A DNA stretch of 64,000 bases from Patescibacteria group bacterium (GTDB lineage Bacteria > Patescibacteriota > Patescibacteriia > Patescibacteriales > UBA12075): the NCBI GenBank assembly GCA_018897195.1, contig JAHILH010000001.1, positions 220,565 through 284,564 on the forward strand, given 5' to 3'. Both the position numbers and the translations under genes were made by a program. This document shows positions 13,305-35,586 of this stretch, one piece after another (within the stretch, counting starts at the first letter, position 1; each line of letters opens with the position of its first letter). The notes under the pieces are model-generated. The model was not told the origin of the DNA. It was given only the letters and a program-made list of their open reading frames with translations, and did not search any database.

Positions 13305-14345
13305 TTAGACAATAATTAAAATATTCTTTTCCTTGATTGCCAAATTTAACTTCTCAAAGTTTTGAGGATTTTCTACGCTATTCTTTTCAGCAAGACACTG
13401 ACGAACAGATGACTCGACGCTTGCCCGCCATCTTCTTTTTTTGTCGGCGACAAACAATCCATCAGGGCCTTGAAAAAAAGTTGGGTAATTACCGTCTAAA
13501 TTCATCTTGCCATAAACATAGAATTTAATTCCCTCGACATTAAAAGTTGCCACAACATCAGCACTTCCAGTTTTATCTAGGCAGAATTTTTTATTAGCCC
13601 GTGTAATAGAATTAAGGCGCTCCTGCTTGGTTTGGAAAACAACGGGCGCGACAACCGGCGGTAATTCAACCACTGCATCCTTTTGCACATCGTCTTTACT
13701 TCCTGACTTGTGCGACATGCACATGGCCACTTGCTCGCTTGTTTCGATTTTTTCACCTTTAATTGTCGGAACATTCTGGAGTCTGTTTCGGAACAATATC
13801 TGTGCAAGTCCACCAATGGTAAAACACACCGTTATTGCCAACAGAGCAATTAATCCAGGCTTACGCCTCACTGGGTTATTGTTTACTCCTTCTGTCTCAG
13901 TAGAAATTGTCTCCGGCGTCGTAAGAACTGTTGACTCTAGACGAGGTTTGTAAATCTCAATCCAAGCACCCTGGGCATCAACACCATCTTTATCATAACG
14001 ACTATTAGCAACTTCGAGGTTGCTATCGGGAAGTTTTTCAAATGAAACAACGCCCCTCAATACACCAATGACTGCCTGACCACGTTCCTCTGCCAACTCT
14101 TTGTTTTTTTTAATACTGCCGACTTTGTTCGTCCGAACATAAATCCGAACAAAACGCCCATCGGGCAAAGTGTTGAGCCGAATAATCTCGTGCCCCATTT
14201 TACCGGTCAGATCTGCCTTCCCAAGGGGAAATTCCCCTAAATCAATATGCTCCTCAATTTCCCACTTACCGTTATCAAGCGCTAAAACACTTGATGCTAA
14301 ACACAGCGACATTGCCATAAATAAAAAGAACATTTTCATCTTCAT
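13305..14345 (-). CDS. Orphan single-pass membrane protein with signal peptide
   Basis: 346 aa. N-terminal signal (MKMKMFFLFMAMSLCLASSVLA) and a central TM helix (GLIALLAITVCFTIGGLAQILF). Strong SD (AGGAGG 7 nt before the ATG). No family recognised. Confidence 0.55.
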   Translation of the reverse strand: MKMKMFFLFMAMSLCLASSVLALDNGKWEIEEHIDLGEFPLGKADLTGKMGHEIIRLNTLPDGRFVRIYVRTNKVGSIKKNKELAEERGQAVIGVLRGVVSFEKLPDSNLEVANSRYDKDGVDAQGAWIEIYKPRLESTVLTTPETISTETEGVNNNPVRRKPGLIALLAITVCFTIGGLAQILFRNRLQNVPTIKGEKIETSEQVAMCMSHKSGSKDDVQKDAVVELPPVVAPVVFQTKQERLNSITRANKKFCLDKTGSADVVATFNVEGIKFYVYGKMNLDGNYPTFFQGPDGLFVADKKRRWRASVESSVRQCLAEKNSVENPQNFEKLNLAIKEKNILIIV

Positions 14346-14404
14346 CGTGTTACCTCCTTCTTTGTTGTTTGTAGACGCACTTTTGCGCGTCCGATGAATT
14401 GAAT

Positions 14405-14433
14405 ATATTAGTATATTTATCTGATTTTGTCAA
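14405..14433 (-). promoter_or_regulatory. Sigma-70-type promoter of the 13305-14345 gene
   Basis: Minus strand reads TTGACA (14428-14433), 17 nt, TAATAT (14405-14410). A 7-bp hairpin (gacgcgc-aaaa-gtgcgtc) follows in the 5' UTR. Confidence 0.6.
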
Positions 14434-14526
14434 TACTGGTTCTCGATTTTAAAAAAATGTTAAAAAAATTAGCTAAAAATACAAAAAACCTCGCTTATTA
14501 AACGAGATTTTAATTATTTGAAGATT

Positions 14527-15267
14527 TTATTTAAATAATATTTGCAGGATTAAAACCAAGACAGAACCTACGAGAAAACTTGGTAAATATTTTAACTTCT
14601 TCCCCTTTTGGCTCATAACCTCTGGTAGTAATTCCCAAAATGAAATATAGAGCATGACACCAGCGGTGGCGCTGATAATAAGACCGAGTAAAAAACCAGA
14701 GATGTTTTTAAAGAAATAATAAGTTAATAAAAAACCGGCAATAGTTGGAATGACGGTTAAAAAAGTTAGTAAAAATGATTTAAATTTTTTTCCAGTTGAG
14801 TAATAAAGTGGCGCAGCCACACAGATTGCTTCTGGAATATCATGAATAGCAATAGCGAGAGCAATTAAGATAGAGAAATTAAAACCTGGTAGAGCGCCGA
14901 TGCCGATAGCGATACCTTCTGGTAGATTGTGAATAAAAATACCGAGAAAGATAAAAAGAGCCAATCTTTTTAATTTTTCTGCCCGACTTTCAAGCCCAGA
15001 TCGAGAATGGTGATAGTGTGGAATTAATTTATTCAATATATGCATCACAAGGCCTCCAAATAGAACACCGACTATAAGTAGCGCTGGGGAAACTTTTTTG
15101 TAACTTTCCGGTAGTAATTGTAAAGCTGACACAAAAACCATCACACCAGCTGCAAATGACAACATGTGGTGAATTTGATTAGCGTTATACTTCTTAAAGA
15201 CGCCTAATAAAGAGCCAATCAGAGGGCCAACAAGAGAAATTATTATAATCACTAATACATTAGTCAT
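14527..15267 (-). CDS. ZIP-family divalent metal (zinc) transporter
   Basis: 246 aa, polytopic, with HNLPEGIAIG and HDIPEA signature motifs. Confidence 0.8.
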   Translation of the reverse strand: MTNVLVIIIISLVGPLIGSLLGVFKKYNANQIHHMLSFAAGVMVFVSALQLLPESYKKVSPALLIVGVLFGGLVMHILNKLIPHYHHSRSGLESRAEKLKRLALFIFLGIFIHNLPEGIAIGIGALPGFNFSILIALAIAIHDIPEAICVAAPLYYSTGKKFKSFLLTFLTVIPTIAGFLLTYYFFKNISGFLLGLIISATAGVMLYISFWELLPEVMSQKGKKLKYLPSFLVGSVLVLILQILFK

Positions 15268-15300
15268 GTCTATATTCTACCCTATTTGTTTATTTTACAC

Positions 15301-15326
15301 AAAAACAAAAGAGGCTAATAGCCTCT
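15301..15326 (-). terminator. Rho-independent terminator of the 15354-16145 gene
   Basis: agaggc-taata-gcctct stem flanked by a T-rich run on the minus strand. Confidence 0.6.
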
Positions 15327-15353
15327 TTTGTAATCTTTTACTTATTTCTATAA

Positions 15354-16145
15354 TTATATTTGTGCTTCTACATCAACACTACCACCATCTTCTAGGTTCA
15401 AAACTTCTTCAGTTTCTGGTGTTTCAGTTGCTTCTACAACTGCCGGTGTTGTTGAGGCATCTGTAGCTGTTATTGTTGACGCTTCCGCCTTAACACATTG
15501 TTTCAATTTTTCAGTATAACTCTTCCAAGACTCATTTCTAACAGCAGCTGTTATTTTATTGCTATTCTTTACAGCCTCTTGGTAAGTTGTTGCACAAGCT
15601 TTGTTTGCTTCGATTTGATTTTCGCCATCTAGCGCGTTGATTTGACAAAGATTGCGAGCATCTAAAGCTGTAAGGATTGTTTGTGAGTAAGCAGTGAAGG
15701 CTTCTTTCAAGGCCGCATCCTTAGCATTGATCGCTTCTTTAACACATGGAACAGCACCAGCTTGCACTTTCTTCATTTCTTTCACTTGTTTCTTCTCTTG
15801 CACTTTAGCTTCTTTTCTGATCCCGAACAAAGATGTACCGATTTTTTTAATTTCTTTAAAATTATTCATTTCAGCCAAATTGGGAATTTTTTCCAATTCT
15901 CCTGCAACATCTTCTTTCTTAGTTTCTTTCTTTTCTGCGCTTGCCATTGATTTACCCTCAGCGCCCTTTCTAATACCCCATAACGCTGTGCCTTTTTTTA
16001 CGATTTGTCCGAAGTTTTTAATTTCTGAAGGGTGAGAAATTTTTTCTAAGCCATCAGCCTTAACAGCTACTGCTAATCCCAAGATTAAGGAAAAAGCAAC
16101 CACTAAAGATAGAGTTTTTTTCATAGTTTTTTTATCCAGCCGCAA
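15354..16145 (-). CDS. Secreted protein with an internal ~50-aa tandem duplication, unknown function
   Basis: Likely start is MKKTLSL at 16124, with a signal peptide. LEKISHPSEIKNFGQIVKKGTALWGIRKGAEG and LEKIPNLAEMNNFKEIKKIGTSLFGIRKEAKV are tandem repeats. Acidic C-terminal tail. Confidence 0.5.
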   Translation of the reverse strand: MRLDKKTMKKTLSLVVAFSLILGLAVAVKADGLEKISHPSEIKNFGQIVKKGTALWGIRKGAEGKSMASAEKKETKKEDVAGELEKIPNLAEMNNFKEIKKIGTSLFGIRKEAKVQEKKQVKEMKKVQAGAVPCVKEAINAKDAALKEAFTAYSQTILTALDARNLCQINALDGENQIEANKACATTYQEAVKNSNKITAAVRNESWKSYTEKLKQCVKAEASTITATDASTTPAVVEATETPETEEVLNLEDGGSVDVEAQI

Positions 16146-16248
16146 TTCATCATGTCGACTACAGATGGATTTATTTAATTATAAAAGAGAGAACATAGAG
16201 ATGCCTCAATGTATTAAATATAGCATTTTTTTGATTCTCTGGCAATGC

Positions 16249-17880
16249 TTATTTATTCAGCCTCTTATCAATAATTGCTTCTGCCACCAACATCCCATCA
16301 ATTGCCGCCGAGATGATTCCGCCAGCATAACCAGCACCTTCACCAGCTGGATAAATGCCTTTTATATTAGACTGTAAGGATTCATCACGAAAAATGCGCA
16401 CTGGTGATGAGCTCCGAGTTTCTACTCCAGTCAGAATAGCATCGGGATGAGAGAAGCCTTTTATTTTTCTTTCCATTTCAGGCAAAGCCTTGCGAATACT
16501 GTTTAAAACGTAATCTGGTAAACAACTACTCAGTGAAGTGAGTCGCACACCTGGTTGATAGGTCGGAGTAACGCTCTTGGTGTCAGTTGATGGTTTATTT
16601 CTCATAAAATCACCTACTAATTGGGCTGGAGCGCGGTAATTGCCACCGCCGACTGAAAAAGCTTTTTCCTCCCATTTGCGCTGAAATTCAACACCAGCCA
16701 AGGGATGGTCAGACTTAAAATCACTGGGTAAAACGTTTACCAATAAAGCGCTATTGGAATTATCACTGTCGCGTGCGTTTTCGCTCATACCATTGGTAAC
16801 CAATCTTCCATCTTCGGAAGCGGCTGCAACAACATAGCCACCTGGACACATGCAAAAAGTATAAACAGAACGGCTTTCGGTTACATGCTCGACTAACTTA
16901 TAGCGAGCGGCTGGTAATTTGGGGTGATTATAAAAGTTGCCATATTGTGATTTGTTAATCATTTCCGATTGATGCTCAATACGCAGACCGATTGCAAACG
17001 GCTTTGCGGTCATTGTTAGATTTTTTTCATGAAGCATTTCGTAGGTGTCGCGCGCCGAGTGACCCACAGCCACCACTAACTCATCGACGCTTATTTTTTC
17101 ATTTTCATTAAATATGGCTGTGACAATTTTATCATCAACAATTTCAATATCAGTTAAGCAAGTCTCAAAGCGCACTTCACCGCCTAATTTAATTATTTTC
17201 TCACGAATATTTTTAACAATTTTGCGCAATTTGTCAGTGCCAATATGTGCCTGAGCATCAATGGCAATTTCCGGTGATGCGCCCGCATTAATTAATTCAT
17301 CAAAAATATACTTCTTACGTGGATTATCAACCATGGTGTATAATTTTCCATCAGAGAATGTCCCTGCCCCGCCTTCACCAAATTGAATATTTGATTGTGT
17401 ATTTAATTTTCCTTCTTTAAAAAATTGATTGACATCTTTTATCCGCGCTTCAACATCTTTACCCCGCTCCACCACCAAAGGTTTTAAACCGGCCTGGGCT
17501 AAAAGCAAGGCAGCAAATAAACCACTCGGTCCAGAACCAATAATGACCGGTCTCTGGCTTTTTATGTCTTGAGATATGATTTTTAATTCATAAATATAAG
17601 GCATTTGTAATCGAATGCGGTGGCGCTTTATCTTATCTTTATGCGTTTCTACAATTTTAAGCAAATAATCTTCAGGATTTTTCAACTCAACATCTACGGA
17701 AAAAACAAAGAGAATTTTACGTTTGTTGCGTGAATCAATTGCCCGTTTAACAATGGTGTATTTTAATAATTCCGCCTCTTTAATTTCTAAAAGCTCCGCA
17801 ATGCGCAACCCCAAAACACTTTCATCCTCTTCAAGACCAAGTGTTAGTTCTTCAACTCTGATTAATTTATCATTTTTCAT
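16249..17880 (-). CDS. FAD-dependent oxidoreductase (COG2509-like)
   Basis: 543 aa. Has the VIIGSGPSGLFAALLLAQAGLKPLVVERG dinucleotide-binding motif after an N-terminal ~90-aa domain, as in COG2509 proteins. Confidence 0.7.
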   Translation of the reverse strand: MKNDKLIRVEELTLGLEEDESVLGLRIAELLEIKEAELLKYTIVKRAIDSRNKRKILFVFSVDVELKNPEDYLLKIVETHKDKIKRHRIRLQMPYIYELKIISQDIKSQRPVIIGSGPSGLFAALLLAQAGLKPLVVERGKDVEARIKDVNQFFKEGKLNTQSNIQFGEGGAGTFSDGKLYTMVDNPRKKYIFDELINAGASPEIAIDAQAHIGTDKLRKIVKNIREKIIKLGGEVRFETCLTDIEIVDDKIVTAIFNENEKISVDELVVAVGHSARDTYEMLHEKNLTMTAKPFAIGLRIEHQSEMINKSQYGNFYNHPKLPAARYKLVEHVTESRSVYTFCMCPGGYVVAAASEDGRLVTNGMSENARDSDNSNSALLVNVLPSDFKSDHPLAGVEFQRKWEEKAFSVGGGNYRAPAQLVGDFMRNKPSTDTKSVTPTYQPGVRLTSLSSCLPDYVLNSIRKALPEMERKIKGFSHPDAILTGVETRSSSPVRIFRDESLQSNIKGIYPAGEGAGYAGGIISAAIDGMLVAEAIIDKRLNK

Positions 17881-17882
17881 AA

Positions 17883-18803
17883 TTACATTTTAAAAACATA
17901 TTGAATAATAAGTCCTGCGATAACACTAATTCCATAAAGAAGGCCCATGATTTTGAGCACGTCTTTTTTGTTTTTTTCTTCACGAAATAAAACCAAAATA
18001 CCAAGACCGCCACTAGCACTAAGGCCGGCAATAACGGAACCGAATGTAATTGCGTGACTCATGTACATTTGTGTAATGGTGACCGAGGCAATACAATTTG
18101 GAATCAAGCCGATTAGCGCTGTTAAAAATGGCTGCCAAAAACTCTGACCAAGGAATAATTTTTCAAAAGTTGCTTGGCCAACTTGGAAGATGATTAGATT
18201 TAACAATAGCGATGCTCCGAAAATATAGGAAAAAATCTTCGCCGTGTGCTTAATCGGGTGCCAAATAATTTCCCTGGGATTAAATTTTTTCGATTCTGAG
18301 CTAGGACTATGTCCGCAACAGGCAATCTCATCAACAACAGAGTCATGATTATGGTGCGAGTCATCGTGCCCGTGTGTATAAGCCTCGATATGTTCTAGAG
18401 TGAATTTATTTTTCTTTCTAAAAAAGAAATCAACTGTGTAGCCCGCTATTATTGCCACGGCTATCTTGGTTAAAATTAGTGGCAAAATAATTCCAATCTT
18501 GTCTGGCTGAGATAAGATAACTGGAATCGCCTCATCAGACGTTGATAGAAAAACAGCCAACAAGGTACCAATTGTTACCAATCTCTGTGAATATAAAGCT
18601 GCCCCAACCACGGAAAAGCCACACTGAGGAAAACCTCCAGCAAGGGCACCAATTGCCGGACCGGCAGCACCAGCACCCTGAACTTTTTTTCTGATCAAAT
18701 TGCCAAATTTATATTCAACCAACTCAATACCGATATACACGATTAGGAGTAAGGGGATCATGCTCACCGAGTCAAGTAAAACATCTAAAAATAGTTCGTA
18801 CAT
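17883..18803 (-). CDS. Polytopic membrane protein, putative metal-ion permease (ArsP_2 / 10-TM exporter-like)
   Basis: 306 aa, about 8-10 TM segments, with a central His-rich loop HGHDDSHHNHDS. The family assignment is from memory of the N-terminal pattern only. Confidence 0.4.
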   Translation of the reverse strand: MYELFLDVLLDSVSMIPLLLIVYIGIELVEYKFGNLIRKKVQGAGAAGPAIGALAGGFPQCGFSVVGAALYSQRLVTIGTLLAVFLSTSDEAIPVILSQPDKIGIILPLILTKIAVAIIAGYTVDFFFRKKNKFTLEHIEAYTHGHDDSHHNHDSVVDEIACCGHSPSSESKKFNPREIIWHPIKHTAKIFSYIFGASLLLNLIIFQVGQATFEKLFLGQSFWQPFLTALIGLIPNCIASVTITQMYMSHAITFGSVIAGLSASGGLGILVLFREEKNKKDVLKIMGLLYGISVIAGLIIQYVFKM

Positions 18804-18918: not shown

Positions 18919-19656
18919 TTATTTCACCTCATAAACCAAGGTTACATCAACCTTAATTTCATTTTGACCAGTTTGAACGGTTGGGCTTGTCAAGGCATCT
19001 CCGCCCCCGCCCATACCTAATTCCATCTTGGTATTAGAGTACATTGGATACACAATCGGATTAGCATTTTCGGTCACAGTTTTGACTGCCCCCAATGTCA
19101 TTCCCGCTTGATCCGCAATCATCTGCGCTTTTTCCTTGGCTTTTTGAATTGCCAATTCCCGTGCTTGATTTTTTAAGGCATATTCATCGTCAATAGTAAA
19201 ATTGATATTACCGATTTGATTAGCGCCCTGTTCGGTTGTCTTTGCAATTACATCACCAATAATATTTAAATCTCGGATTTTTAAAGTTAAAGTTTGAGTC
19301 ACCTCGTAACCAATTAACTCCTGCCCTTTATTATTAGTCCAATTATATATAGGGTTCAAGTTGTAGTCACTGGTTTTAATATCCTTGTCATCAATTTTCA
19401 ATTTTTTCAATTCAGCAATAATGCTATTCATTTTTGCAGTGCTGTCCTTCGTCGCCTCCGCCGCCGTCTTCTTCGCCCCCGTCTTCAAACCCACGTTAAT
19501 ATTAGCAATATCCGCCTTGGCATAGACAGTGCCTGAACCGACCACAGAAAAACGGTCTTGATTATTAATTTTATTCGTGGTTATTAACGACACAATGACA
19601 ATTGCACCAACTACTAAAATCACCAAAGTAGCTAGAAAGGTATGAGTTTTTTGCAT
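18919..19656 (-). CDS. SIMPL-domain (DUF541) periplasmic/secreted protein
   Basis: 245 aa with an N-terminal TM/signal and a SIMPL-like pattern: VVGSGTVYAKADIANINVGL ... GYEVTQTLTLKIRD ... IKVDVTLVYEV. Confidence 0.7.
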   Translation of the reverse strand: MQKTHTFLATLVILVVGAIVIVSLITTNKINNQDRFSVVGSGTVYAKADIANINVGLKTGAKKTAAEATKDSTAKMNSIIAELKKLKIDDKDIKTSDYNLNPIYNWTNNKGQELIGYEVTQTLTLKIRDLNIIGDVIAKTTEQGANQIGNINFTIDDEYALKNQARELAIQKAKEKAQMIADQAGMTLGAVKTVTENANPIVYPMYSNTKMELGMGGGGDALTSPTVQTGQNEIKVDVTLVYEVK

Positions 19657-19764
19657 AAAATTATTTTTTAATAATAAAGATTATGCATTTATTGTACCAT
19701 ATTTTGGCAAAATGAAAAAGAGAGAAGATTTTTCTCCGCTCTTTTTATTTCATTCTAACGATTG

Positions 19765-20730: not shown

Positions 20731-20759
20731 TTGACAATTTTGAAAAATAATGCTAAAGT
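20731..20759 (+). promoter_or_regulatory. Sigma-70-type promoter of the PRTase-like gene
   Basis: TTGACA (20731-20736), 17 nt, TAAAGT (20754-20759). SD GAGGGGG at 20803-20809. Confidence 0.5.
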
Positions 20760-20814
20760 CTGGGAAATAATTCCGTACATTTAAATATTAATCTAAGCAT
20801 ACGAGGGGGCAAAA

Positions 20815-21621
20815 ATGGATAACCAATTTATGGATATTTTTAAACTGGATAAGGAAGGACTGAAAAATCTTAGGCCGGAAGATGTGATGCGGAAAATTTC
20901 GATTGAGGAATTTTTCCATATTCTCAAAACTCTTAACAACTTATGGTTTTACGACCGTGAGGCCTTAAAAAATGGAAAGGTCGGATATCATGCAATTTTA
21001 AAATCAGAGCTTTGTAGTGATGGATTTGTAAATCTAAAAGGAGTTCTTAAACAATATCCAAACATACGCAAAATTATGGCGTATCAGCTCAAATGGATGA
21101 TTTTGGAACGGGTAGATAAAGGTATGAAAATGCCCACCCATCTTGCCGGAGTACCAGATGCTGCCACCGAACTCGGCGAGGATCTTGCAGAAATTCTGGG
21201 CATAAAATTGGCTCGAGTTGCAAAGACCACAGAGGGACACATTGTTTTCCTCACTAAATTAAATAAAAATGAATCCCTCCTTCTTGTTGAGGATATCTGC
21301 TCAAAAGCGACTGGTATCACAGAAACAATAAACGACGCCACTGAGTGTGGCATGGTGGACGCTAGTGCCATTATCAAGGTGGAGATTGTACTCCTTAACC
21401 GTGGCGGTCTTAAGTCATTTATTGTTGATGGATACGAATATGAGGTCCTTTCTGCGTTTGAGCACCGCATAAGAGAATACATGCCACCTGGCGCGACCGA
21501 CGATCTCAGAAATAAATATCCAGATACGCCACCCTGTCCGCTATGCGCGCTCGGTGTACCAAGGGATAAACCCAAAAAAACAGAGGAAAGCTGGACACGC
21601 ATAACAACAGCGCAGCTCTGA
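20815..21621 (+). CDS. Type I phosphoribosyltransferase-like protein (PyrE-like core) with Cys-containing C-terminal extension
   Basis: 268 aa. YHAILKSELCSDGFVN parallels the OPRTase HFxLxSGxHS motif. LLLVEDICSKATGITE is a PRPP-binding-loop pattern. The C-terminus carries PPCPLCALG. One of the few plus-strand genes. Confidence 0.5.
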   Translation: MDNQFMDIFKLDKEGLKNLRPEDVMRKISIEEFFHILKTLNNLWFYDREALKNGKVGYHAILKSELCSDGFVNLKGVLKQYPNIRKIMAYQLKWMILERVDKGMKMPTHLAGVPDAATELGEDLAEILGIKLARVAKTTEGHIVFLTKLNKNESLLLVEDICSKATGITETINDATECGMVDASAIIKVEIVLLNRGGLKSFIVDGYEYEVLSAFEHRIREYMPPGATDDLRNKYPDTPPCPLCALGVPRDKPKKTEESWTRITTAQL

Positions 21622-22561: not shown

Positions 22562-24055
22562 TTATTTGTTTTTCTCATCCTCTAATACTTTTTTTATAAT
22601 TATTGATAAATCTGACATCTTTACTGGTTTTAGAATAAATTCTTTAACACCTAGTCCTCTAGCTACCTCCGGTGACATAATTGAACTATAGCCAGTGCAC
22701 ATGATAATCGGAATATCTGGTCGAATGTTTATAATTTTATCCGCCAATTGCGCCCCAGTTAACTCTGGCATTGTTTGGTCAGTTAAAATTAAATCAAAGG
22801 AATCTGGACTGTCTTCAAAAATTTTCAAAGCTTCAAGACTGCTAGTGGTACTAATTACATCATACCCTAATAATCTTAAACCCATTGCACAAACATCGGC
22901 AATTTGCGGTTCATCATCAACTAGGAGAATTTTTTCACTACCAAGAATAATCAACTCATCTACTTTTTGGCACTTTACTTCCTCTCCACACCAGAGAGGT
23001 ATAAAAACATTAAACGTAGAACCTTTTCCCAATTCAGAATCAACCGTCACGAAGCCGCCATAGGTAGCCACTATTCCGTGGACGATGGCCAAGCCCATAC
23101 CGGTTCCTTTGCCAGCACCCCTAGTGGTAAAATAGGGATCAAAGATTCTTTCCTTTACTCTTGAATCCATACCAACACCAGTGTCGGAAATTGACAACTG
23201 CATATACGCGCCGGGCTTTGCATCTTCGTTTTTTAGAACCTGATCTTCACTGATAACGACTTTTTTCAAAACTACTGTTAATGCGCCGCCCAATTGCTCC
23301 ATTGCGTGAAAAGCATTTGTGCATAAATTTGTTACAACTTGATGTATTTGCGTCGCATCAGCTAAAACATAGTTTTGTTCATTGTCTATTTCCTGCACGA
23401 TTTTAATCGTCGTTGGTAACGAAGATCGCATCATTTTTAATATTTCCTTAATACAAGTCGATAATTGCAATGGCATAAACTCAGCTTTATGTTGGCGGCT
23501 AAAACAAAGAATTTGATTGATAAGTAGCTTTGCTCTTTTAGCCGCTGCTACAACATGGCTTAAGTTTTTTTCTTGTTCAGAATCTTTTGGTGCCAATGCG
23601 ATCGTTAACTCTGTATACCCAAAAATAATACTCAGAATATTATTAAAGTCATGTGCAATTCCTCCCGCCAATGTGCCAATAGCTTCCATTTTTTGTGCTT
23701 GATTCAATCTATCTTGAAGCTTTACACGCTCAATTTCAGTCAACTCGCTCTTATTTTTCTCCGTGTGCAACTCCTGGATTTGGCGAATCATCTGCTTGTT
23801 CAAGTCAATAATCTTAGCTTCGGCCATATCCCTGTTTCGAAATATGATTTTAAATTTCCCATGAACAAAAAATATGCCAATCATGAGAATTACCCAAAAA
23901 ATAAAACACCAAGTCTGATTTTGATTAATTTTGTAGCCCTGCGCCAAGATAATTAATGTTAAAAAAACGGCAACAAGGATTAAAACTCTTTGCACTTGAA
24001 TAAAATCGCCCTGAGCCTTATGCCCAAACAAATCCTTCAAATATTTTATTTTCAT
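22562..24055 (-). CDS. Hybrid sensor histidine kinase (2 TM, coiled coil, HisKA, HATPase_c, C-terminal REC)
   Basis: 497 aa. GGIAHDFNNILSIIFGY is the H-box, with N/G1/G2 boxes (DTGVGM, GTGMGLAIV). The receiver domain has LLVDDEP...DLILTDQTMP. SD GGAGG lies 6 nt upstream. Confidence 0.9.
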   Translation of the reverse strand: MKIKYLKDLFGHKAQGDFIQVQRVLILVAVFLTLIILAQGYKINQNQTWCFIFWVILMIGIFFVHGKFKIIFRNRDMAEAKIIDLNKQMIRQIQELHTEKNKSELTEIERVKLQDRLNQAQKMEAIGTLAGGIAHDFNNILSIIFGYTELTIALAPKDSEQEKNLSHVVAAAKRAKLLINQILCFSRQHKAEFMPLQLSTCIKEILKMMRSSLPTTIKIVQEIDNEQNYVLADATQIHQVVTNLCTNAFHAMEQLGGALTVVLKKVVISEDQVLKNEDAKPGAYMQLSISDTGVGMDSRVKERIFDPYFTTRGAGKGTGMGLAIVHGIVATYGGFVTVDSELGKGSTFNVFIPLWCGEEVKCQKVDELIILGSEKILLVDDEPQIADVCAMGLRLLGYDVISTTSSLEALKIFEDSPDSFDLILTDQTMPELTGAQLADKIINIRPDIPIIMCTGYSSIMSPEVARGLGVKEFILKPVKMSDLSIIIKKVLEDEKNK

Positions 24056-24435
24056 GACTTGCCTCCACTTTGAATTGCGTCGCTATTGCCGCTCAGGACT
24101 ATGCGACCCTGATTTACAAGATTCTGCTTGGCTTCCATAACCATGGAAAGATTCCAAAAAACTTCTGGATAATTTCTTTTCAACATTACTAAGCAATAAA
24201 CCGCATAAGCCCCCTTGGTACCTGTTTTTTGAATTTTATATGCACGCTGATTCCAAGTGTCAATTTTTTCAATACAGTACCCTTCGTTTATAGCTTGTGC
24301 CTGAGCAGAGCTTGGCGTTTCGCAAAGAATTGCCAACTCCATTAATCGCTGGTTGTTTAATGCAAAATGCGCTTTAGCGATTAGGGTATTCGCATCATGT
24401 GGCCTCGGTTTCCATTTTCGTTTCTCATTGGTCAT
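24052..24435 (-). CDS. Hypothetical protein translationally coupled to the hybrid histidine kinase
   Basis: 127 aa. Its stop overlaps the kinase start (ATGA). SD AAGGAGAGG upstream. No family recognised. Confidence 0.5.
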   Translation of the reverse strand: MTNEKRKWKPRPHDANTLIAKAHFALNNQRLMELAILCETPSSAQAQAINEGYCIEKIDTWNQRAYKIQKTGTKGAYAVYCLVMLKRNYPEVFWNLSMVMEAKQNLVNQGRIVLSGNSDAIQSGGKS

Positions 24436-24594
24436 GCCAGCCTCTCCTTGTGCTAGATTTTAACAATACCTCAATTAATCGCGATAATGATTTTTTATTA
24501 AATTGTCAAGGTTCGTTTTGTGGTTATTTACATTGCAACCTTAAATCTTTCACCCCCTTTTGTCAAACTAGTTTTTATTTGTTAAAATAATACT

Positions 24595-25985: not shown

Positions 25986-25987
25986 AT

Positions 25988-29630: not shown

Positions 29631-30596
29631 TTAACCGCGTTTAAGATAGACTTTAACAAAGCTACTCTTTAACTCTCCGGCTTTTTTTGATAATTCCTCA
29701 GTTTTATTATTATTGGCCAAGTCTAGAAGACTATCAAGATTGGCTCTAATTGCTTTTATCTCGTCATCATTCGCTGTTTCCTCTACCGCTTTTAATTTCT
29801 CGTCAATCTCCGGATAAACGTCAATTACCCCTTGAGCATCTTTGGCGTCAGCCGCTGCAATAGCTTTTTCCATGGCATCATGAAAATCAACCAAGGCCAC
29901 AGCTAACATTGAGAAATTATTACGCTTTAACATGTCTTGAAAAATCGGTCGCACATCTTCTAGCTCTTTATGCAAAGCCAACAAATCGCCATTATAGATT
30001 TTATCTTTAGCATTGACTATTTTCTCTGAGATATTTTTAATATCATCGTTAAATTGAGAGTCTTTACGAATAACATAGGGATGATAAACACTGTATTTAT
30101 CACTATACTTCTTATACTCAATTACTAATTTTTCATAATTATCAATACTTTCCGGTCGTAAATCTTTACCAGTATTAAAAAGCGTCTGCTTGTAATAATT
30201 ATTCATCCGGTTGTAATCTTCTAAGAAAAATTTCTTGGTGAAAAAATTACTATAATAAGCGCCAATAGTTGGCAACATCACTAAAACAACCACAAAGAAA
30301 TAAATAATTTTTTTTCCTAAAGCTGAAGGAAATTTTACCACCGTGCTAAAATTAATTATTTTATAAAGCGCACAAAAACCGGTTATCGCTGTGAATAAAG
30401 TGACCCCGCCGACAATATAGAGAACCAGAGACAGCGTGCCACTAACCCAAAAAAAGGCTAGTAATAAAAAAAGTTCGCCCAATGCGACCCGGATTAAGCG
30501 ATCTAAGAGATTTTCATTTTGCAGTTTTTGCATAAAAAATAATATTAATAATAATGTTAAACTATGTTCTATCATTACTACGTAAGTAAATAACAT
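29631..30596 (-). CDS. DUF2892 (YgaP-like) membrane domain fused to a ~200-aa helical soluble domain
   Basis: DRLIRVALG...ITGFCALYKI matches the DUF2892 pattern. The likely start is MQKLQ at 30533. There are 5 nt between its stop and the polyferredoxin start. Confidence 0.55.
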   Translation of the reverse strand: MLFTYVVMIEHSLTLLLILFFMQKLQNENLLDRLIRVALGELFLLLAFFWVSGTLSLVLYIVGGVTLFTAITGFCALYKIINFSTVVKFPSALGKKIIYFFVVVLVMLPTIGAYYSNFFTKKFFLEDYNRMNNYYKQTLFNTGKDLRPESIDNYEKLVIEYKKYSDKYSVYHPYVIRKDSQFNDDIKNISEKIVNAKDKIYNGDLLALHKELEDVRPIFQDMLKRNNFSMLAVALVDFHDAMEKAIAAADAKDAQGVIDVYPEIDEKLKAVEETANDDEIKAIRANLDSLLDLANNNKTEELSKKAGELKSSFVKVYLKRG

Positions 30597-30605
30597 TTTC
30601 TTTCA

Positions 30606-30636
30606 AATAAAAAAACCGCAGGGCGAACCATGCGGT
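30606..30636 (-). terminator. Rho-independent terminator of the 30657-31172 gene
   Basis: accgca-N10-tgcggt stem (30615-30620 / 30631-30636) followed by T8 on the minus strand. Confidence 0.75.
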
Positions 30637-30656
30637 GTTAAACGTTTGTAAAAAAC

Positions 30657-31172
30657 TTACTCAGTCCTTTTTTCTTTTGCTTTTTCAAAGAAGGCGAGGC
30701 ACTCTTTTTCGTCGGCAATTAAATCCTTGAAGGCGAACGCATCAATGCCTTCTATAAGAATTGTCACCTTCTCTTCGCCGTGAACGAGCTTATTGATATT
30801 GCCGTAATCGCAATCTCCTTCATACATGACGTCTTTACACTCAAGCCCATTTTTTAGGGCATAGGCAACTATTGGTGAGCTTGGCTTTTCGAAGAGGTAT
30901 TTACCGTTAGGCAATATAATTCGTGTTGCCTGACCCCGTTTTACCTTGGCCAATATTTGACAAACAGCCTCAATAGATTTATCGCTGACTTCTTGTTTTG
31001 GCGGAAATTCACCAGGGGTTGCAAATGCTTTCCGCATCAGAACGATTGATAACAATTCGGCCACTTCTCGCCCGTAGCATTTTTCTACGTAGTCAAAGGC
31101 TCCGGTGCCTTCAATCTCGAACATTCTGGCTGCCTCATTCAAGTCAGACAACGTCAAGTTTTTTTTACTCAT
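30657..31172 (-). CDS. Hypothetical cytoplasmic protein (171 aa)
   Basis: The track ORF starts at GTG 31181, but AAGGAG sits 8 nt before the ATG at 31172, which is the preferred start. No family recognised. Confidence 0.55.
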   Translation of the reverse strand: MSKKNLTLSDLNEAARMFEIEGTGAFDYVEKCYGREVAELLSIVLMRKAFATPGEFPPKQEVSDKSIEAVCQILAKVKRGQATRIILPNGKYLFEKPSSPIVAYALKNGLECKDVMYEGDCDYGNINKLVHGEEKVTILIEGIDAFAFKDLIADEKECLAFFEKAKEKRTE

Positions 31173-31249
31173 TTGATTCACTCCTTATGTTGTGTTTGAT
31201 AAAAAAGACAAACAAATATATGCTTAAAAAGAACTGCGTTTAATACTCC

Positions 31250-31278
31250 AAGTTAGCACAAAAACCTAAGCTTGTCAA
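31250..31278 (-). promoter_or_regulatory. Sigma-70-type promoter (extended -10) of the 171-aa gene
   Basis: Minus strand reads TTGACA (31273-31278), 17 nt ending TGc, TAACTT (31250-31255). The 21-nt motif shared with the response-regulator promoter follows. Confidence 0.55.
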
Positions 31279-31344
31279 ACATATGCTTAATATAAAAACA
31301 ACCCGCATGTATTACGGGCTGTTTTAAACGTTTTGGAATAAATC

Positions 31345-31467
31345 TTAATTCTTCTTTCTCTTTGCCGCTTTTTCTTCAAGCATAACACGCTTGATTTCTA
31401 ATCTTTTTGCTGTTTTGTGTGAGTGCGATTTTTTACCTTTTCCCACGCCAGTGTCTCTTTTTGCCAT
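31345..31467 (-). CDS. Small ORF missing from the track: 40-aa lysine/arginine-rich peptide
   Basis: Hand translation gives MAKRDTGVGKGKKSHSHKTAKRLEIKRVMLEEKAAKRKKN*. It is too short for the ORF track. A hairpin plus T-run (31292-31321) follows on the minus strand. No obvious SD. Confidence 0.35.
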   Translation of the reverse strand: MAKRDTGVGKGKKSHSHKTAKRLEIKRVMLEEKAAKRKKN

Positions 31468-31594
31468 GTTTTTTTCATTAGGAGCTACTCATTTATTAAA
31501 TATATGGAGCAAATCCTTATTACAAATTTATAATAATCTTAATATGTATAATACTTTAACACAAATGTATAAATATTTCAAGGGCTGGCAGTTA

Positions 31595-31623
31595 TTGACA
31601 AATACGAGAATAATTGCTTAAAT
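31595..31623 (+). promoter_or_regulatory. Candidate promoter of the 91-aa gene
   Basis: TTGACA (31595-31600), 17 nt, TTAAAT (31618-31623). Confidence 0.4.
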
Positions 31624-31681
31624 ATGTAAATCATGTTCACGGCAAACTACAGATAAACAATATTTAAACGGAGAAAAAAAC

Positions 31682-31957
31682 ATGGACAACAACAAAAGAA
31701 TGCTTGTGTTGGAGATTGGTCAATCCGTGAAAATCGGTGAAAAAACCTTCCTAATGGCATCCATGTCTCGGAAGGGAGACGACATTGTTTGTGAACTAAA
31801 AAATGGCCCAACAGTGTCCATTTCCCAGAGAAATATGCCCGAACATTTGGCTGAGATAAAAAAGGTGCATCACAGAAAACCACCCCGTATTCTCGGCACA
31901 GTAATCGACGAAGCTGCCAGGGTGGTTACAAAAAAACAACCAATGAATAGGAGATAA
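31682..31957 (+). CDS. Small protein (91 aa) with faint CsrA-like N-terminal pattern and basic C-terminal tail
   Basis: GGAG lies 8 nt upstream and the gene has its own terminator. MLVLEIGQSVKIGE...KGDDIV...GPTVSISQRNM resembles CsrA [16 protein letters not shown]...[22 protein letters not shown] by eye only. Confidence 0.5.
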   Translation: MDNNKRMLVLEIGQSVKIGEKTFLMASMSRKGDDIVCELKNGPTVSISQRNMPEHLAEIKKVHHRKPPRILGTVIDEAARVVTKKQPMNRR

Positions 31958-31980
31958 AAAAAATTCTCAGTAAAAGACAA

Positions 31981-32008
31981 AACCCAAGACGCGCGCTTGG
32001 GTTTTTTA
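31981..32008 (+). terminator. Rho-independent terminator of the 91-aa gene
   Basis: aacccaag-acgcgcg-cttgggtt stem followed by a T-run. Confidence 0.8.
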
Positions 32009-32021
32009 ATTTTTGAAATTT

Positions 32022-32059
32022 AAAAAAAATAGGGCTACTTAATATTTCATAAGTAGCCC
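32022..32059 (-). terminator. Rho-independent terminator of the 72-aa gene
   Basis: gggctactta-N8-taagtagccc 10-bp stem followed by T8 on the minus strand. Confidence 0.8.
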
Positions 32060-32103
32060 ATTGGTAAGCATAATTTATCCCAAGTTAATACATTTTATTT
32101 TTG

Positions 32104-32322
32104 TCACACACTTATAACTTTGCCGCCTGGCCCACTAACTGTTATCATGGCCATAAAGAGCAACCCCTTTCGTTCAGTGGCAATTGCAGCTCTTGGGCCA
32201 TCGAAACCAGCCTTGGTTAATTGATTTCTGATTTCATCAACTGAACGAGTTGAGTGTGCAATTTTTTTTACAATCTCAGTCGCCTCTTCAACAGAAAGCC
32301 GGCTAATATCATTTGCGACCAT
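32104..32322 (-). CDS. Hypothetical small protein (72 aa)
   Basis: AAGGAG lies 7 nt before the ATG, with a dedicated terminator. No family recognised. Confidence 0.5.
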   Translation of the reverse strand: MVANDISRLSVEEATEIVKKIAHSTRSVDEIRNQLTKAGFDGPRAAIATERKGLLFMAMITVSGPGGKVISV

Positions 32323-32499
32323 TGTTACTCTCCTTTCATTATAAAAGGTTTATAAAAAGAACCGTTATTATTATAATAATTTACATACACTACCTTGTTT
32401 TTTACAGTTTGTCAAGTAAGTGCCTAGTAGGCATAATTATATAAATAAAAAAATAGCTAAATATAGCTATTTTTTTATGTGAACTAATTTTACGTTACT

Positions 32500-33570
32500 T
32501 TATTCCTCGCTAGTTGTGCTTGCAATATCTTCGTCATCTTCCTTTTCAGTAGAGCTATCCTTATCGCGCCCATTACCTTTTTTCTCACCTTCCCCATTCT
32601 CAAGTTTCTTGCCTTTTTCCATTTTAAACTCCTTTTTCTCTTCTTTTTCAATCTTGTTCTCTACTTTTTCCAATGCCTTTTCAGCTTGCATGGCATGCTG
32701 CCTAGCTTGCACCCAATGTTCTTTTGAAATAGATGAGCTAGCTTTATCCATAAAAGAATTAAATTTTATCAATTCGGTTGTTGAGGCTAATCCGTTTTGT
32801 GATGCCTCTTGTAGTTGCTTTCGCGCCTGAAGCATGGCCGCCTCGGCTTCTTTTTTAAATTCCTCAGACTTGCCGATTCGATCCTCATTATCCTCCATCT
32901 CACTCTTAATTTTCTCAATTTTTTCTTTCCACGTTTTTCGCGCTTCGGTACTTGTGGCGTTTACCGCCATTGAGTCTAAATTATTTTCCAAATCAGTTTT
33001 AGCTTTCTCAATTTTATTTTGCAATTCTTTGGCTAGAGCATTTACATTCTTACCATGACTTCTTTCCCCTTCAATAATACTAGCTGTTTGAGATGCGTGT
33101 TTTGTTAGATTAGCCAAAGCAATTTCTAAACCCTTGGGATCAATTCCTTTTTCGCTTAACATTTTTTGAACTTCCTCAACTCTATCATTTGCATACTTGG
33201 CATGAAGCTTGGCTTTAGCAGTATTATTAAAAGTAACTGCCTCCCTAACTTCTTCTGTCAATATTTTGACTGGATACAAGGCATCACTGGGAAGACTTGT
33301 TTGAGAAGCAGCTGCGACTCCACCTCCGGTTGTAATAAGCGCGATTAAAACAATAATAAATGCTGGCATAGATTTAAAGTTTAGTTTATTAAAATTTATA
33401 AATTTATTTAGGGACTCCATATTAAATAGACGTTGAACTTCTTTTTTCATTACAGGATTATTTGTCATGAAAATATTTAGTTCACCTCTAAAATCAACCA
33501 AGAATTGCTTATTCATATCTTCAGTTCTTAGCTTCTTTATTTTTCTGATTGTAAATACTTCCTTAAACAT
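32500..33570 (-). CDS. Putative anti-sigma factor / DUF5667-like single-pass membrane protein
   Basis: 356 aa. Overlaps the ECF sigma stop by 8 nt. One TM helix, then LPSDALYPVKILTEEVREAV (a DUF5667-like motif) and a long coiled-coil, Glu/Lys-rich ectodomain. Confidence 0.6.
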   Translation of the reverse strand: MFKEVFTIRKIKKLRTEDMNKQFLVDFRGELNIFMTNNPVMKKEVQRLFNMESLNKFINFNKLNFKSMPAFIIVLIALITTGGGVAAASQTSLPSDALYPVKILTEEVREAVTFNNTAKAKLHAKYANDRVEEVQKMLSEKGIDPKGLEIALANLTKHASQTASIIEGERSHGKNVNALAKELQNKIEKAKTDLENNLDSMAVNATSTEARKTWKEKIEKIKSEMEDNEDRIGKSEEFKKEAEAAMLQARKQLQEASQNGLASTTELIKFNSFMDKASSSISKEHWVQARQHAMQAEKALEKVENKIEKEEKKEFKMEKGKKLENGEGEKKGNGRDKDSSTEKEDDEDIASTTSEE

Positions 33571-34060
33571 ATAATTGGTTTCTTATTTTTTTTAATCCTC
33601 GATGACATATGACGCGAATATTGTTTGGATTTTTATCCATCATTGTAGCAATTTCCTTAACACTTAAATCGTCAATATATCTCATATACACAATTTCACG
33701 TTCATTGTCTGTTTCAAGACTTTCAATAGCTGCTTTAATTTTTTTCACCTCTATCTTATCTGACGTACTATCAGCCAAATCATTACTTGATGGCTCATTT
33801 GCCCCCAAGTCATCCAAGGCAATATCAGATCGACTTTTCTTCCGGTAAAAATCAATAATGAGATTCCTGGCCACCATATAAACAAATGCTCGAAGATTTT
33901 CAATTTTTTGTTCATTGACTAAGGACTTCCAAGTTCGCAAAAAAGTCTCTTGAAAAATATCCTGCGCCTCCTTGTTATTAGACACGCGAAAACTAATATG
34001 GCGCATAACCTGCTCACCATATTTATCATAAATCTCTAAAAACATTTTTTCTTCGTCCAT
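33563..34060 (-). CDS. ECF-type RNA polymerase sigma factor
   Basis: 165 aa with region 2 (AQDIFQETFLRTWKSL...DFYRKK) and region 4 (REIVYMRYIDDLSVKEIATMMDKNPNNIRVICHRGLKKIR). Confidence 0.9.
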   Translation of the reverse strand: MDEEKMFLEIYDKYGEQVMRHISFRVSNNKEAQDIFQETFLRTWKSLVNEQKIENLRAFVYMVARNLIIDFYRKKSRSDIALDDLGANEPSSNDLADSTSDKIEVKKIKAAIESLETDNEREIVYMRYIDDLSVKEIATMMDKNPNNIRVICHRGLKKIRNQLYV

Positions 34061-34208
34061 ATCTATTTAGACGAATATAATCGTCTTTCATTACAAGATT
34101 ATTTTTATTTTATCATTAAAAGTTAAAATAAACAATAAAATTAGCAAAAAATAAGATAATAAAAAAGCGTGCTTTATAGGCAACGCTTTTGTTTAAATTT
34201 AACCTCTT

Positions 34209-34553
34209 TTACCTCTCAATCAAATTCTTTAAGGCCTCAGTTTGGACTGGTTTTGAAAAGATGGCCAAAAAAATATTTTGATCATCTTTATTTATCCTTT
34301 CGGGACTAGCGGTTATCATTATTACGGGAATTTTAATCCCTTTTTCTTGAATTGCTTTTGCGAACTCAACTCCATCCATTTGCGGTCTGCGATAATCCGT
34401 GAGAATATAATCAAAATCGGGATTACCAACTAGGTGCACCAGCGCCTCCAGGGAACAATCGGCAATTGTCACCATGTGGCCGGCATCTTCTAGGACAGGC
34501 TTTAGAAACCCGCGAATCACGGGACTGTCATCGACTAATAAAATTTTTTTCAT
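34209..34553 (-). CDS. Single-domain (CheY-like) response regulator receiver protein
   Basis: The track ORF runs to 34580. The preferred start is MKKILLVDDSP at 34553, with GGGAGG 6 nt upstream. It has the DD...D...K receiver pattern and no output domain. Confidence 0.85.
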   Translation of the reverse strand: MKKILLVDDSPVIRGFLKPVLEDAGHMVTIADCSLEALVHLVGNPDFDYILTDYRRPQMDGVEFAKAIQEKGIKIPVIMITASPERINKDDQNIFLAIFSKPVQTEALKNLIER

Positions 34554-34619
34554 TACTGGCCTCCCTTGTTTATATAACAAGATATAAAGTTTTATTCTTA
34601 AAAAGAACTACGTCATAGA

Positions 34620-34647
34620 AGATTAACACATTTTAAGTCCATGTCAA
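34620..34647 (-). promoter_or_regulatory. Sigma-70-type promoter (extended -10) of the response-regulator gene
   Basis: Minus strand reads TTGACA (34642-34647), 16 nt ending TGt, TAATCT (34620-34625). The shared 21-nt motif (34593-34613) follows. Confidence 0.55.
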
Positions 34648-34740
34648 TGTATTAACAATTTAATTTATAATAAATATTAGATATAAAAAAACTTACCTAA
34701 AATTAGATAAGTTTTTTTAAATTATTCATATTCCAATTGT

Positions 34741-35181
34741 TTAGTTATTTGGTTGATATATTTTTCCGTCCTTAAAATTTCTAATAACCAACTCTGTCCC
34801 CTTAAATAATCTTTTCGGCAAATCATTCAAGCTCACCCAGCGCCATTCTTTGCATTTGTCCGGCTCCATAAGTTTCGGATCACCGCCATTGTACACAGCC
34901 TTGATACCAATATTAAGATAATGTTTATTGTCAGTTATAATATAACGCAATTCGTCAGCCACGGAAATCAATTCAAATTCACTCACATCAAGATCAACTT
35001 CCTCTTTTACCTCCCTCTTTGCCGTTTCAAAAATAGTCTCCCCAAACTCCAAATGCCCACCCGGAAAACTCCACTCACCCTCACCATGCGCCCCTTGTCG
35101 CAAACCAAGCAACACCTCGCCTTTGCTATTTTGAATTAACACACCAACGCCAACACGCGGTCTTATTTTTTCTGTTGTCAT
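34741..35181 (-). CDS. NUDIX hydrolase
   Basis: 146 aa with the Nudix box GGHLEFGETIFETAKREVKEEVDL. Confidence 0.9.
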   Translation of the reverse strand: MTTEKIRPRVGVGVLIQNSKGEVLLGLRQGAHGEGEWSFPGGHLEFGETIFETAKREVKEEVDLDVSEFELISVADELRYIITDNKHYLNIGIKAVYNGGDPKLMEPDKCKEWRWVSLNDLPKRLFKGTELVIRNFKDGKIYQPNN

Positions 35182-35262
35182 ATTTTTAACGACTAATTTA
35201 TTACTTTAATATTATATATCCGTATTATATCACAATTTCAAATTATTCAACATTTGTTAAAT

Positions 35263-35297
35263 AAAAAAGAGGGCTTCGCGAAATGCGGGTGCCCTCT
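35263..35297 (-). terminator. Rho-independent terminator of the 81-aa gene
   Basis: agagggc-N16-gccctct stem followed by T5-6 on the minus strand. Confidence 0.6.
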
Positions 35298-35340
35298 GAA
35301 TGTGTCCCATTAATTTGATGATGTAATTTACGTCGTATCA

Positions 35341-35586
35341 CTATATTGACGTTATATCCTCTCCGGAAACTAAACCATTGGCTTCAGCCAAGTAATAAAC
35401 AGTTTTATGTTTTTCAGTTTTCTTATATCCAACCACTTGCCTGTTTTGCACCACTCTCGAGAGCGTGAATGATAGTTTAAGCTTAGCTCGCGCATCTTCT
35501 ATTGAATCTGCACTAACATAACCTTTTACCCGACTAGGCGTTAAGCCATTGCTTTTTTGATGATTTTTCCAAAGAAAAAATAACAT
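35341..35586 (-). CDS. Hypothetical small protein (81 aa)
   Basis: AAGGAG lies 7 nt before the ATG, with its own terminator. No family recognised. Confidence 0.45.
   Translation of the reverse strand: MLFFLWKNHQKSNGLTPSRVKGYVSADSIEDARAKLKLSFTLSRVVQNRQVVGYKKTEKHKTVYYLAEANGLVSGEDITSI

Follow-up and report, generated by a model that had tools for sequence, protein, structure and literature searches.

Shine-Dalgarno sequences and a distinct promoter class on a minority of fast-evolving genes at a Parcubacteria locus

How does translation start in a bacterium that hardly uses Shine-Dalgarno (SD) sequences, and why do a few of its genes carry strong ones? This question is raised by a 64,000-nt stretch of DNA (GenBank assembly GCA_018897195.1, contig JAHILH010000001.1, forward-strand positions 220,565 to 284,564), referred to here as the window. 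Positions are counted from its first base, and genes are named by their left coordinate. The closest rpoD relatives were found in metagenome-assembled genomes (MAGs) labelled Falkowbacteria and Moraniibacteriota; the organism belongs to the Parcubacteria/Patescibacteria of the candidate phyla radiation (CPR), not to the Bacteroidia. Proteins of the window recur with identical sequence in MAG GCA_018895855.1 and several independent assemblies, and two of them are labelled Candidatus Parcubacteria bacterium by NCBI. The CPR holds a large share of bacterial diversity and has reduced ribosomes, and its translation start is barely described. No paper on gene-level SD usage in these bacteria was found in a literature search. 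An earlier note on this DNA had listed nine genes with strong, well-spaced SDs and had named housekeeping genes without any.

In the window, 67 non-overlapping open reading frames (ORFs) were called, and the 40 nt upstream of every start were inspected. An extended set of 73 genes comprised the window and ~17 kb past its ends (11 genes added from beyond both ends). The SD score was the duplex energy of positions -20 to -3 with a canonical 16S rRNA tail (ACCUCCUUA), which may not be that of the host. The cut-off was ≤ -8 kcal/mol, which 1.4% of random positions pass. The starts of 30657 and of the receiver-domain (REC) gene 34209 were shifted from the longest ORF to the SD-bearing ATG (31172 and 34553). 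Seven starts among the initially called window ORFs passed the cut-off, and nine of 73 did so in the extended set (binomial p = 7e-7 versus 1.4% random); these nine are not the nine SD-class genes, as 41493 is included with bad spacing and 31682 (-6.6 kcal/mol) is left out. The earlier note had proposed to look for bimodality. Across the 73 starts, scored with the canonical tail, the energies formed a main mode at 0 to +2 kcal/mol and an SD tail apart from it.

All nine genes of the earlier note were confirmed as carrying a purine-rich motif complementary to the CCUCC core, with a spacer of 5–8 nt to the ATG and duplex energies of -6.6 to -13.0 kcal/mol (Table 1). Some of the SDs reach GGAGGT or GGGGGTGA, matching the canonical tail CACCUCC. 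All nine genes lie within 13.3–35.6 kb, a single block that holds 25 of the 73 genes (p about 1e-3). T at position -1 was found in none of the nine, compared with 45 of the 64 others (p = 7e-5). The higher G+C that had been noted by eye was also found (0.410 versus 0.375, p = 0.004). Of the composition checks that had been proposed, synonymous codon usage was atypical (p = 6e-4), and the difference in G+C at third codon positions (GC3) was not significant.

Table 1. Positions of the SD-class genes, their SDs and predicted promoters, and of the contrast block, in window coordinates.
Feature	Position	Strand	Pattern	Remarks
Gene 13305	13305..14345	-		SD class; 346-aa secreted/membrane orphan, signal peptide and one transmembrane segment
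SD of 13305	14353..14359	-	AAGGAGG	spacer 7, -13.0 kcal/mol
Predicted structured leader of 13305	14346..14398	-		5' UUCAUC pairs with GAUGAA (start codon) around a GC hairpin, z = -4.6
Predicted promoter of 13305	14405..14433	-	TTGACA-N17-TAATAT	
Predicted promoter of 20815	20731..20759	+	TTGACA-N17-(TGc)TAAAGT	kept in L104, L105, L106
SD of 20815	20803..20809	+	GAGGGGG	spacer 5, -10.9 kcal/mol
Gene 20815	20815..21621	+		SD class; 268-aa protein, small family without Pfam model
Hybrid kinase 22562	22562..24055	-		SD class; hybrid histidine kinase HisKA-HATPase-REC (Pfam)
SD of hybrid kinase 22562	24062..24066	-	GGAGG	spacer 6, -9.3 kcal/mol; within 3' end of 24052
Gene 24052	24052..24435	-		SD class; 127-aa orphan between conserved kinase promoter and kinase, no copy in relatives
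SD of 24052	24441..24449	-	AAGGAGAGG	spacer 5
Two predicted promoters upstream of 24052/kinase	24481..24566	-	TTGACA	
Distal predicted 24052/kinase promoter	24538-24566	-	TTGACAAAAGG..TTTAAGGT	orthologous to L104 and L105 kinase promoters
Gene 30657	30657..31172	-		SD class; 171-aa orphan
SD of 30657	31181..31186	-	AAGGAG	spacer 8
Predicted promoter of 30657	31250..31278	-	TTGACA-N17-(TGc)TAACTT	
Predicted promoter of 31682	31595..31623	+	TTGACA-N17-(TGc)TTAAAT	
SD of 31682	31670..31673	+	GGAG	spacer 8, -6.6 kcal/mol, weakest of nine
Gene 31682	31682..31957	+		SD class; 91-aa orphan, terminator at 31979-32005 downstream
Gene 32104	32104..32322	-		SD class; 72-aa orphan without family in Pfam, NCBIfam, PHROG, PADLOC
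SD of 32104	32330..32336	-	AAAGGAG	spacer 7
Predicted promoter of 32104	32387..32415	-	TTGACA-N17-TAGTGT	
REC gene 34209	34209..34553	-		SD class; single-domain response regulator, true start ATG at 34553
SD of REC 34209	34560..34567	-	AAGGGAGG	spacer 6, -11.3 kcal/mol
Predicted promoter of REC 34209	34620..34647	-	TTGACA-N16-(TGt)TAATCT	
Gene 35341	35341..35586	-		SD class; 81-aa orphan directly downstream of tRNA-Asn
SD of 35341	35594..35599	-	AAGGAG	spacer 7
Contrast block	36456..63519	-		26 core/accessory genes, every start region SD-less and AU-rich; rpoD, dnaG, glycosyltransferases, rfb genes, frr, rseP, hpf, holB, dnaE and others

The products of the SD genes are diverse. The seven orphan proteins have no family in Pfam, PHROG, PADLOC or NCBIfam, and 30657 matched only itself among 5.8 billion proteins. 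The family of 20815 is a small one, with 136 representative clusters among 1.84 billion proteins and a weak phosphoribosyltransferase-like match (PDB 2wns, E = 0.036). In the stand-alone receiver, the Pfam REC domain spans residues 4–112, in agreement with the start at 34553. An all-against-all BLAST of 32 SD-class proteins returned only orthologue pairs, the kinase-receiver domain match and one weak paralogue pair on contig L092, which ruled out a common protein family behind the class. The earlier note had equated the SD class exactly with the unknown and regulatory genes. The association is strong (Fisher p = 1.4e-5) but one-directional: the SD genes are a subset of such genes. An SD is missing from at least nine genes with no significant Pfam family (12260, 15354, 39824, 45799, 47532, 52507, 52713, 54202 and 59189), and likewise from those of the extracytoplasmic function (ECF) sigma factor, its DUF5667 partner and the sigma-region-4 protein.

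The 64 starts without SD look different. Adenine is at 0.47–0.66 at positions -11 to -4 versus 0.36 in intergenic DNA, G is at most 0.12 there (mostly 0.02–0.09), T is at 0.70 at -1, and the median SD energy is about 0. The 60-nt start regions of these native genes have 24% G+C and fold with -4.3 kcal/mol. Those of the SD genes are in between (32% G+C, -6.3 kcal/mol), while internal windows reach -9.2 kcal/mol. The named housekeeping genes indeed have no usable SD; GGAG at murB and rfbC lies 14–17 nt upstream. The SD-like motifs at murB, 41493 and 51027 are badly spaced, and the GGGAG of 41493 is not present in its orthologues.

The earlier note had also pointed to -10-like hexamers 2–9 nt before the ATG of several of these genes. 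A mild enrichment remains (~2.0 per position versus 1.2 farther upstream), but the hint at leaderless transcripts was overstated. The hexamer distances (five genes at 6 nt and five at 2 nt over a background of ~1.2 per position) have no sharp peak, and the leaderless signal for the housekeeping genes is weak. Individual leaderless candidates are 14527, 24595, 12260 and 54202. In L104 and L105, two related species, the -10 boxes of the SIMPL and ArsP genes are ~35–40 nt upstream. A generic promoter scan was non-discriminating in this AT-rich DNA (82 found, 69 expected).

The SD genes also share a promoter type. A predicted TTGACA-N16/17-(TGn)TAnnnT promoter precedes seven of the eight SD transcription units versus two of 31 native first genes (p = 2e-5). 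The earlier note had seen an own TTGACA promoter for six SD genes, and this holds, exactly so in the seven units; the exception is 35341, which has TTAACA only. The intergenic DNA contains 12 TTGACA hexamers. Eight are upstream of SD genes, and the remaining four are at rpmA, the tRNA-Asn gene, an HD-domain gene and the window edge. The SD-unit promoters end 45–102 nt (mostly 55–77 nt) before the ATG, giving predicted leaders of ~40–70 nt.

The leader of 13305 is predicted to fold such that the SD is left in a loop. The L105 orthologue leader (21441–21512) has the same fold (z = -5.8), and its hairpin differs by a single compensatory change, C-G to U-A. The 13305 leader looks like a translational control element, as judged from the predicted fold. 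No conserved fold was found in the leaders of 20815 and 30657, and most single SD-gene leaders fold no better than shuffled sequences. A motif ACGyAGTTCTTTTTA(AG) was seen near the 5' ends of three minus-strand leaders: 30657 (31225–31234), 32104 (32353–32362) and REC (34599–34608). The site is taken in the 30657 family by TGCTCCTTT in L104 and TGTTCCTT in L105, a pyrimidine, anti-SD-like tract. A fourth exact copy of the motif is coding and lies inside 13305.

Syntenic relatives allowed a comparison across species. A kinase search led to the proteins P0003 and P0004 and, through them, to contigs L105 and L103/L104, which share synteny with the window at 12.9–35.2 kb; contig L106 covers part of the region. 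Core genes are 67–93% identical and have an SD in none of the species. SD-gene orthologues are 33–60% identical (median 55 versus 83 for the core, p = 8e-5), and the SD was kept in six of six species for the kinase, four of four for the 20815 family, three of three for the 30657 family and two of two for 13305. The TTGACA-N17 promoters of these orthologues are also orthologous. The kinase promoter of L106 has a related ..GACAAAAAGG..TTTAAGGT stretch.

The SD sequences themselves vary. The six kinase SDs are GTGGAGGC, GGGAGGAG, CAGGAGGG, GGAGGAGG, AAGGAGGAG and TGGGGGAT, with energies of -8.4 to -12.1 kcal/mol in all six copies (window, L104, L105, L106, L107 and L108). The 20815 family has GAGGGGG, GAGGGA, AAGGAGGGGG and GAGGGG in orthologues of 55–60% identity, and the 30657 family has AAGGAG, GAGGA and GGAGGA. 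The distant syntenic homologues of 30657 in L104 and L105 (33–38% identity) have both SD and promoter, and the 13305 orthologue in L105 (55% identity) has the same promoter, leader hairpin and SD. In L104, only a 34-codon remnant of the 13305 orthologue is left between rpmA and the 15354-like gene (19649–19750, 79% identity), which indicates that the orthologue has probably decayed there. For five SD genes (24052, 31682, 32104, REC and 35341), the syntenic relatives contain no orthologue; REC matched only the receiver domains of the kinases and one gene on L025 (27–33% identity). The relatives' own species-specific SD genes fill the same variable slots (L104 815, 12852 and 14092; L105 6372). 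Judged by sequence comparison, the motifs, their spacing, their enrichment and their conservation between species despite SD sequence turnover indicate that these SDs are under selection rather than left over from a fresh transfer. From selection on the SDs we infer that the ribosome of this lineage still has a usable canonical anti-SD. An Rfam search of the window and 14 related loci found only tRNAs and one group I intron, and no rRNA. Searches for the prfB frameshift site and for bS21 (tblastn) gave nothing useful in the sequences analysed, rpsU was not found there, and the window contains none of the genes for bS21, bS18 and bS6.

The pattern extends to other CPR bacteria. SDs were present on 0–13% of genes in related CPR loci, compared with 32–65% in Firmicutes control loci run through the same crude pipeline. 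Among 228 ATG-start genes of 20 more distant CPR loci, 15 had an SD. A TTGACA-N16–18-TAnnnT site preceded six of these 15 genes versus one of the 213 others (p = 2e-7). The distant SD genes examined were mostly small orphans or recombinases.

Our preferred reading, which we hold to be probably correct, is that two gene-expression designs coexist in this Parcubacteria genome and that both are maintained by selection. The majority design would cover ~88% of genes, among them every informational and cell-envelope gene. It would have no SD and an AU-rich (24% G+C), nearly G-free, unstructured start region with A at -11 to -4 and U at -1, combined with short leaders or tight operon packing. The minority design would cover ~12% of genes here, all in 13.3–35.6 kb. 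These genes would have a promoter with consensus -35 TTGACA, a 16–17 bp spacer and a weak, often TG-extended -10 (TAnnnT, mostly TA[A/G]nnT), a leader of ~40–70 nt, a canonical SD with a 5–8 nt spacer to the ATG, and always a base other than U at -1. They would be fast-evolving accessory genes: the hybrid kinase, the stand-alone receiver, the secreted/membrane protein and small orphans. SD pairing would recruit the 30S subunit to the longer, G+C-richer and partly structured leaders of the minority, and core genes would depend on structure-free, A-rich start regions and translational coupling.

Several points weigh against this reading. The rpmA and HD-domain genes lack an SD despite their TTGACA promoters and long predicted leaders, so an SD does not always come with a long leader. 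On L093, the genes for Lon protease and a Na/Pi transporter have strong SDs, meaning that class membership varies by lineage. About half of Parcubacteria 16S genes are without CCTCCT (Tsurumaki et al. 2022, PMC9297842). SD-like pentamers are depleted in coding sequence relative to synonymous shuffles (z = -3.4), but many unrelated pentamers are equally depleted (rho with duplex energy 0.02); this avoidance of intragenic SD-like motifs is unspecific, and internal SD avoidance was rejected. The sample is ~80 kb of one genome plus fragments of relatives, and the leader lengths rest on predicted promoters.

Chance or annotation error, in the form of accidental G-rich hexamers near mis-called starts of an AT-rich genome, is an extremely improbable explanation. 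Some SD-like matches are chance matches, as the badly spaced motifs at 41493, murB and 51027 and the absence of the first from orthologues suggest, and for two genes (30657 and REC) the start was not the one of the longest ORF. Yet the binomial enrichment (p = 7e-7) and the narrow spacing remain, the REC start fits its domain boundary, orthologous starts and SDs align, and independent assemblies of several samples yielded the same contigs. At the level of sequence conservation, the artefact appears effectively refuted. Another explanation is that the SD genes were recently taken from SD-using donors together with their signals and are not (yet) under host selection. Higher G+C, atypical codon usage, orphan status and the five genes without orthologue in the syntenic relatives speak for it, as do the tRNA-Asn at the region edge and the serine recombinases among the SD genes of L043. 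Moreover, the nearest named kinase homologues are from Desulfobacterota (46–55% identity). The CPR kinases, however, form their own clade (62–69% identical in the catalytic core), and both facts together fit an old acquisition followed by vertical descent; by these similarities, an old foreign origin of the kinase is plausible. When the region was examined as a recent genomic island, its composition was atypical (G+C p = 0.004; codon usage p = 6e-4), but it contained no integrase, the 3' end of the adjacent tRNA-Asn was not repeated (no att repeat), and the whole 13–36 kb is syntenic in L104, L105 and L106 instead of absent. Four SD families are present in the L104–L106 region, while four small orphans and the stand-alone REC are species-specific. 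No homologue of 30657 was detectable outside the syntenic relatives. When 30657, 20815 and 13305 were compared with viral contigs, nothing related turned up, and neither PHROGs nor PADLOC gave a family for the orphan SD proteins, which leaves an origin from phages or defence systems unsupported. In addition, the SD and promoter of four families were kept in two to six species despite sequence turnover, and a perfect TTGACA in seven of eight units is more uniform than expected of imported promoters. We regard recent import as quite improbable. The donor hypothesis of the earlier note, taken as a simple recent transfer, was not upheld for the SD genes with homologues in related species, to which this verdict is limited.

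The other proposal of the earlier note was that the cell runs two initiation modes and reserves the SD for a regulon. The two designs are well supported: the majority has a positional signature of its own, and the SD minority differs in SD, -1 base, promoter type, leader length, codon usage and evolutionary rate. A regulon did not follow from the data and is suggested only by the shared promoter class. In a dedicated regulon, the minority genes would be co-regulated, either in translation, with the anti-SD masked or unused except in a particular ribosome state (as in bS21-lacking Flavobacterium ribosomes), or in transcription, by a factor acting on -35-dependent promoters. The uniform promoter class and SD on non-homologous genes, here and in distant CPR loci, argue for this, together with the pyrimidine motif at three leader 5' ends, the conserved 13305 fold predicted to sequester the start codon, the presence of a hybrid kinase and a receiver in the set, and the precedent in Bacteroidia (PMC9976891, PMC13000453). 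Against it, TTGACA promoters also occur at rpmA and tRNA-Asn and may be plain strong sigma-70 promoters, no conserved structure was seen in two of the three leader sets that were tested, and the proteins are heterogeneous. We consider such a regulon rather unlikely. A further proposal, also unlikely in our view, is that SD-poor Parcubacteria keep the anti-SD for one conserved, -35-dependent and SD-dependent programme of fast-evolving accessory genes, switched by ribosome state or a dedicated factor. Such a programme would unite a phosphorelay with surface proteins and small proteins and might serve host interaction.

The two designs resemble several known systems in part. In Bacteroidia (Flavobacterium johnsoniae; PMC7797042, PMC9976891, PMC13000453), almost no SDs are present, starts have upstream adenines and low structure, and a tiny gene minority has a strong, functionally meaningful SD, retained there on rpsU; the anti-SD is sequestered by bS21, bS18 and bS6. 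The phylum is different, and the SD gene there is a ribosomal-protein autoregulatory gene, whereas the minority here makes up ~12% of local genes and consists of fast-evolving genes for accessory and signalling functions, marked by a special class of promoter. By analogy, the majority class may work like Bacteroidia-type SD-independent initiation without being a member of it. The loss of the anti-SD in part of the Parcubacteria (Tsurumaki et al. 2022, PMC9297842) concerns the same radiation and likewise implies that most genes can do without SD pairing. That study deals with rRNA only, without a gene-level SD class or promoter link, and the conserved SDs here imply that the anti-SD was kept in this lineage. 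A local lack of mRNA structure can support SD-independent initiation (Scharff et al. 2011, PMC3121790), in line with the -4.3 versus -9.2 kcal/mol of native starts and internal windows. This is a general principle and not a two-class genome, and it leaves the SD-plus-promoter cassette unexplained.

Mixed start signals within one genome form a further parallel. In the leaderless-plus-SD genomes of GeneMarkS-2, SDs reportedly mark the internal genes of operons, with leaderless first genes. At this locus, in contrast, the SDs are on first genes with long leaders, and operon-internal genes are without SD. The GeneMarkS-2 models include SD plus leaderless promoter, non-SD ribosome-binding sites and native versus atypical genes; as here, there is more than one start-region model per genome, and atypical genes are their own class (bioRxiv 10.1101/193490).

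Some observations concern individual genes of the SD class and their counterparts. The start of 20815 is duplicated (ATGGATAACCAATTTATGGATA, 20815–20832, plus strand). The SD spacing is right for the first ATG only; the public gene call takes the second. ORF 24052–24435 occupies a place (24052–24566, minus strand) where relatives have merely a kinase leader of ~75–85 nt, and its last codons supply the kinase SD. It could be either an inserted gene or one newly arisen in the kinase 5' untranslated region. On L092 (490–1346, minus strand), three adjacent small genes (78–89 aa) each have a strong SD and share, by eye, G.V..VH.D.F.L. They may form a small paralogous family; BLAST pairs only 490 with 784 (33% identity, E = 5e-4). 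On L043, from a distant Patescibacteria MAG, a group I intron (11226–11446; Rfam, 107 bits) lies just after rpoD, beside the SD-bearing serine-recombinase genes.

Other genes of the window have their own features. An ECF-type promoter-like site, GTAAT-N16-CGTC (34070–34094, minus strand), ends ~10 nt ahead of the ATG (34060) of the ECF sigma gene; L104 has a near-identical site. This suggests that the sigma/DUF5667 operon may be autoregulated and almost leaderless. The site was not found at the SD genes, and a link of the ECF sigma factor to them was rejected. A defence-type OLD/GajA/PtuA-like ATPase (2985–4817, minus strand) has no SD. The adjoining 431-aa protein (5048–6343, minus strand) has only sigma-70 region 4 and a HARE-HTH/delta-like domain, with a weak MzaA match, and is also without SD. 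Directly upstream of dnaG-rpoD, 39824–40264 (minus strand) encodes a 146-aa protein (HLDQKQASYAG..HMHNAEHDG) with no Pfam family, whose 14 relatives are from metagenomes and were found only in related CPR and metagenome contigs. At the corresponding place in the E. coli operon, the gene is rpsU. Two HIT-domain paralogues are located side by side at 50040–50951 (minus strand).

For the biology of the CPR, the finding means that an SD-poor Parcubacterium keeps textbook SDs and a distinct promoter class on a definable, fast-evolving gene set. This offers a concrete answer to why the anti-SD persists in a lineage hardly using it, and it predicts that lineages without anti-SD should also have lost these SDs. 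In practice, gene callers trained on the majority class misplace SD-class starts, as in the case of 20815, and the strong promoter-plus-ribosome-binding-site cassettes could serve future CPR genetics. If the proposed switched programme were true, it would be the CPR counterpart of specialised-ribosome regulation in Flavobacterium, covering a whole gene class.

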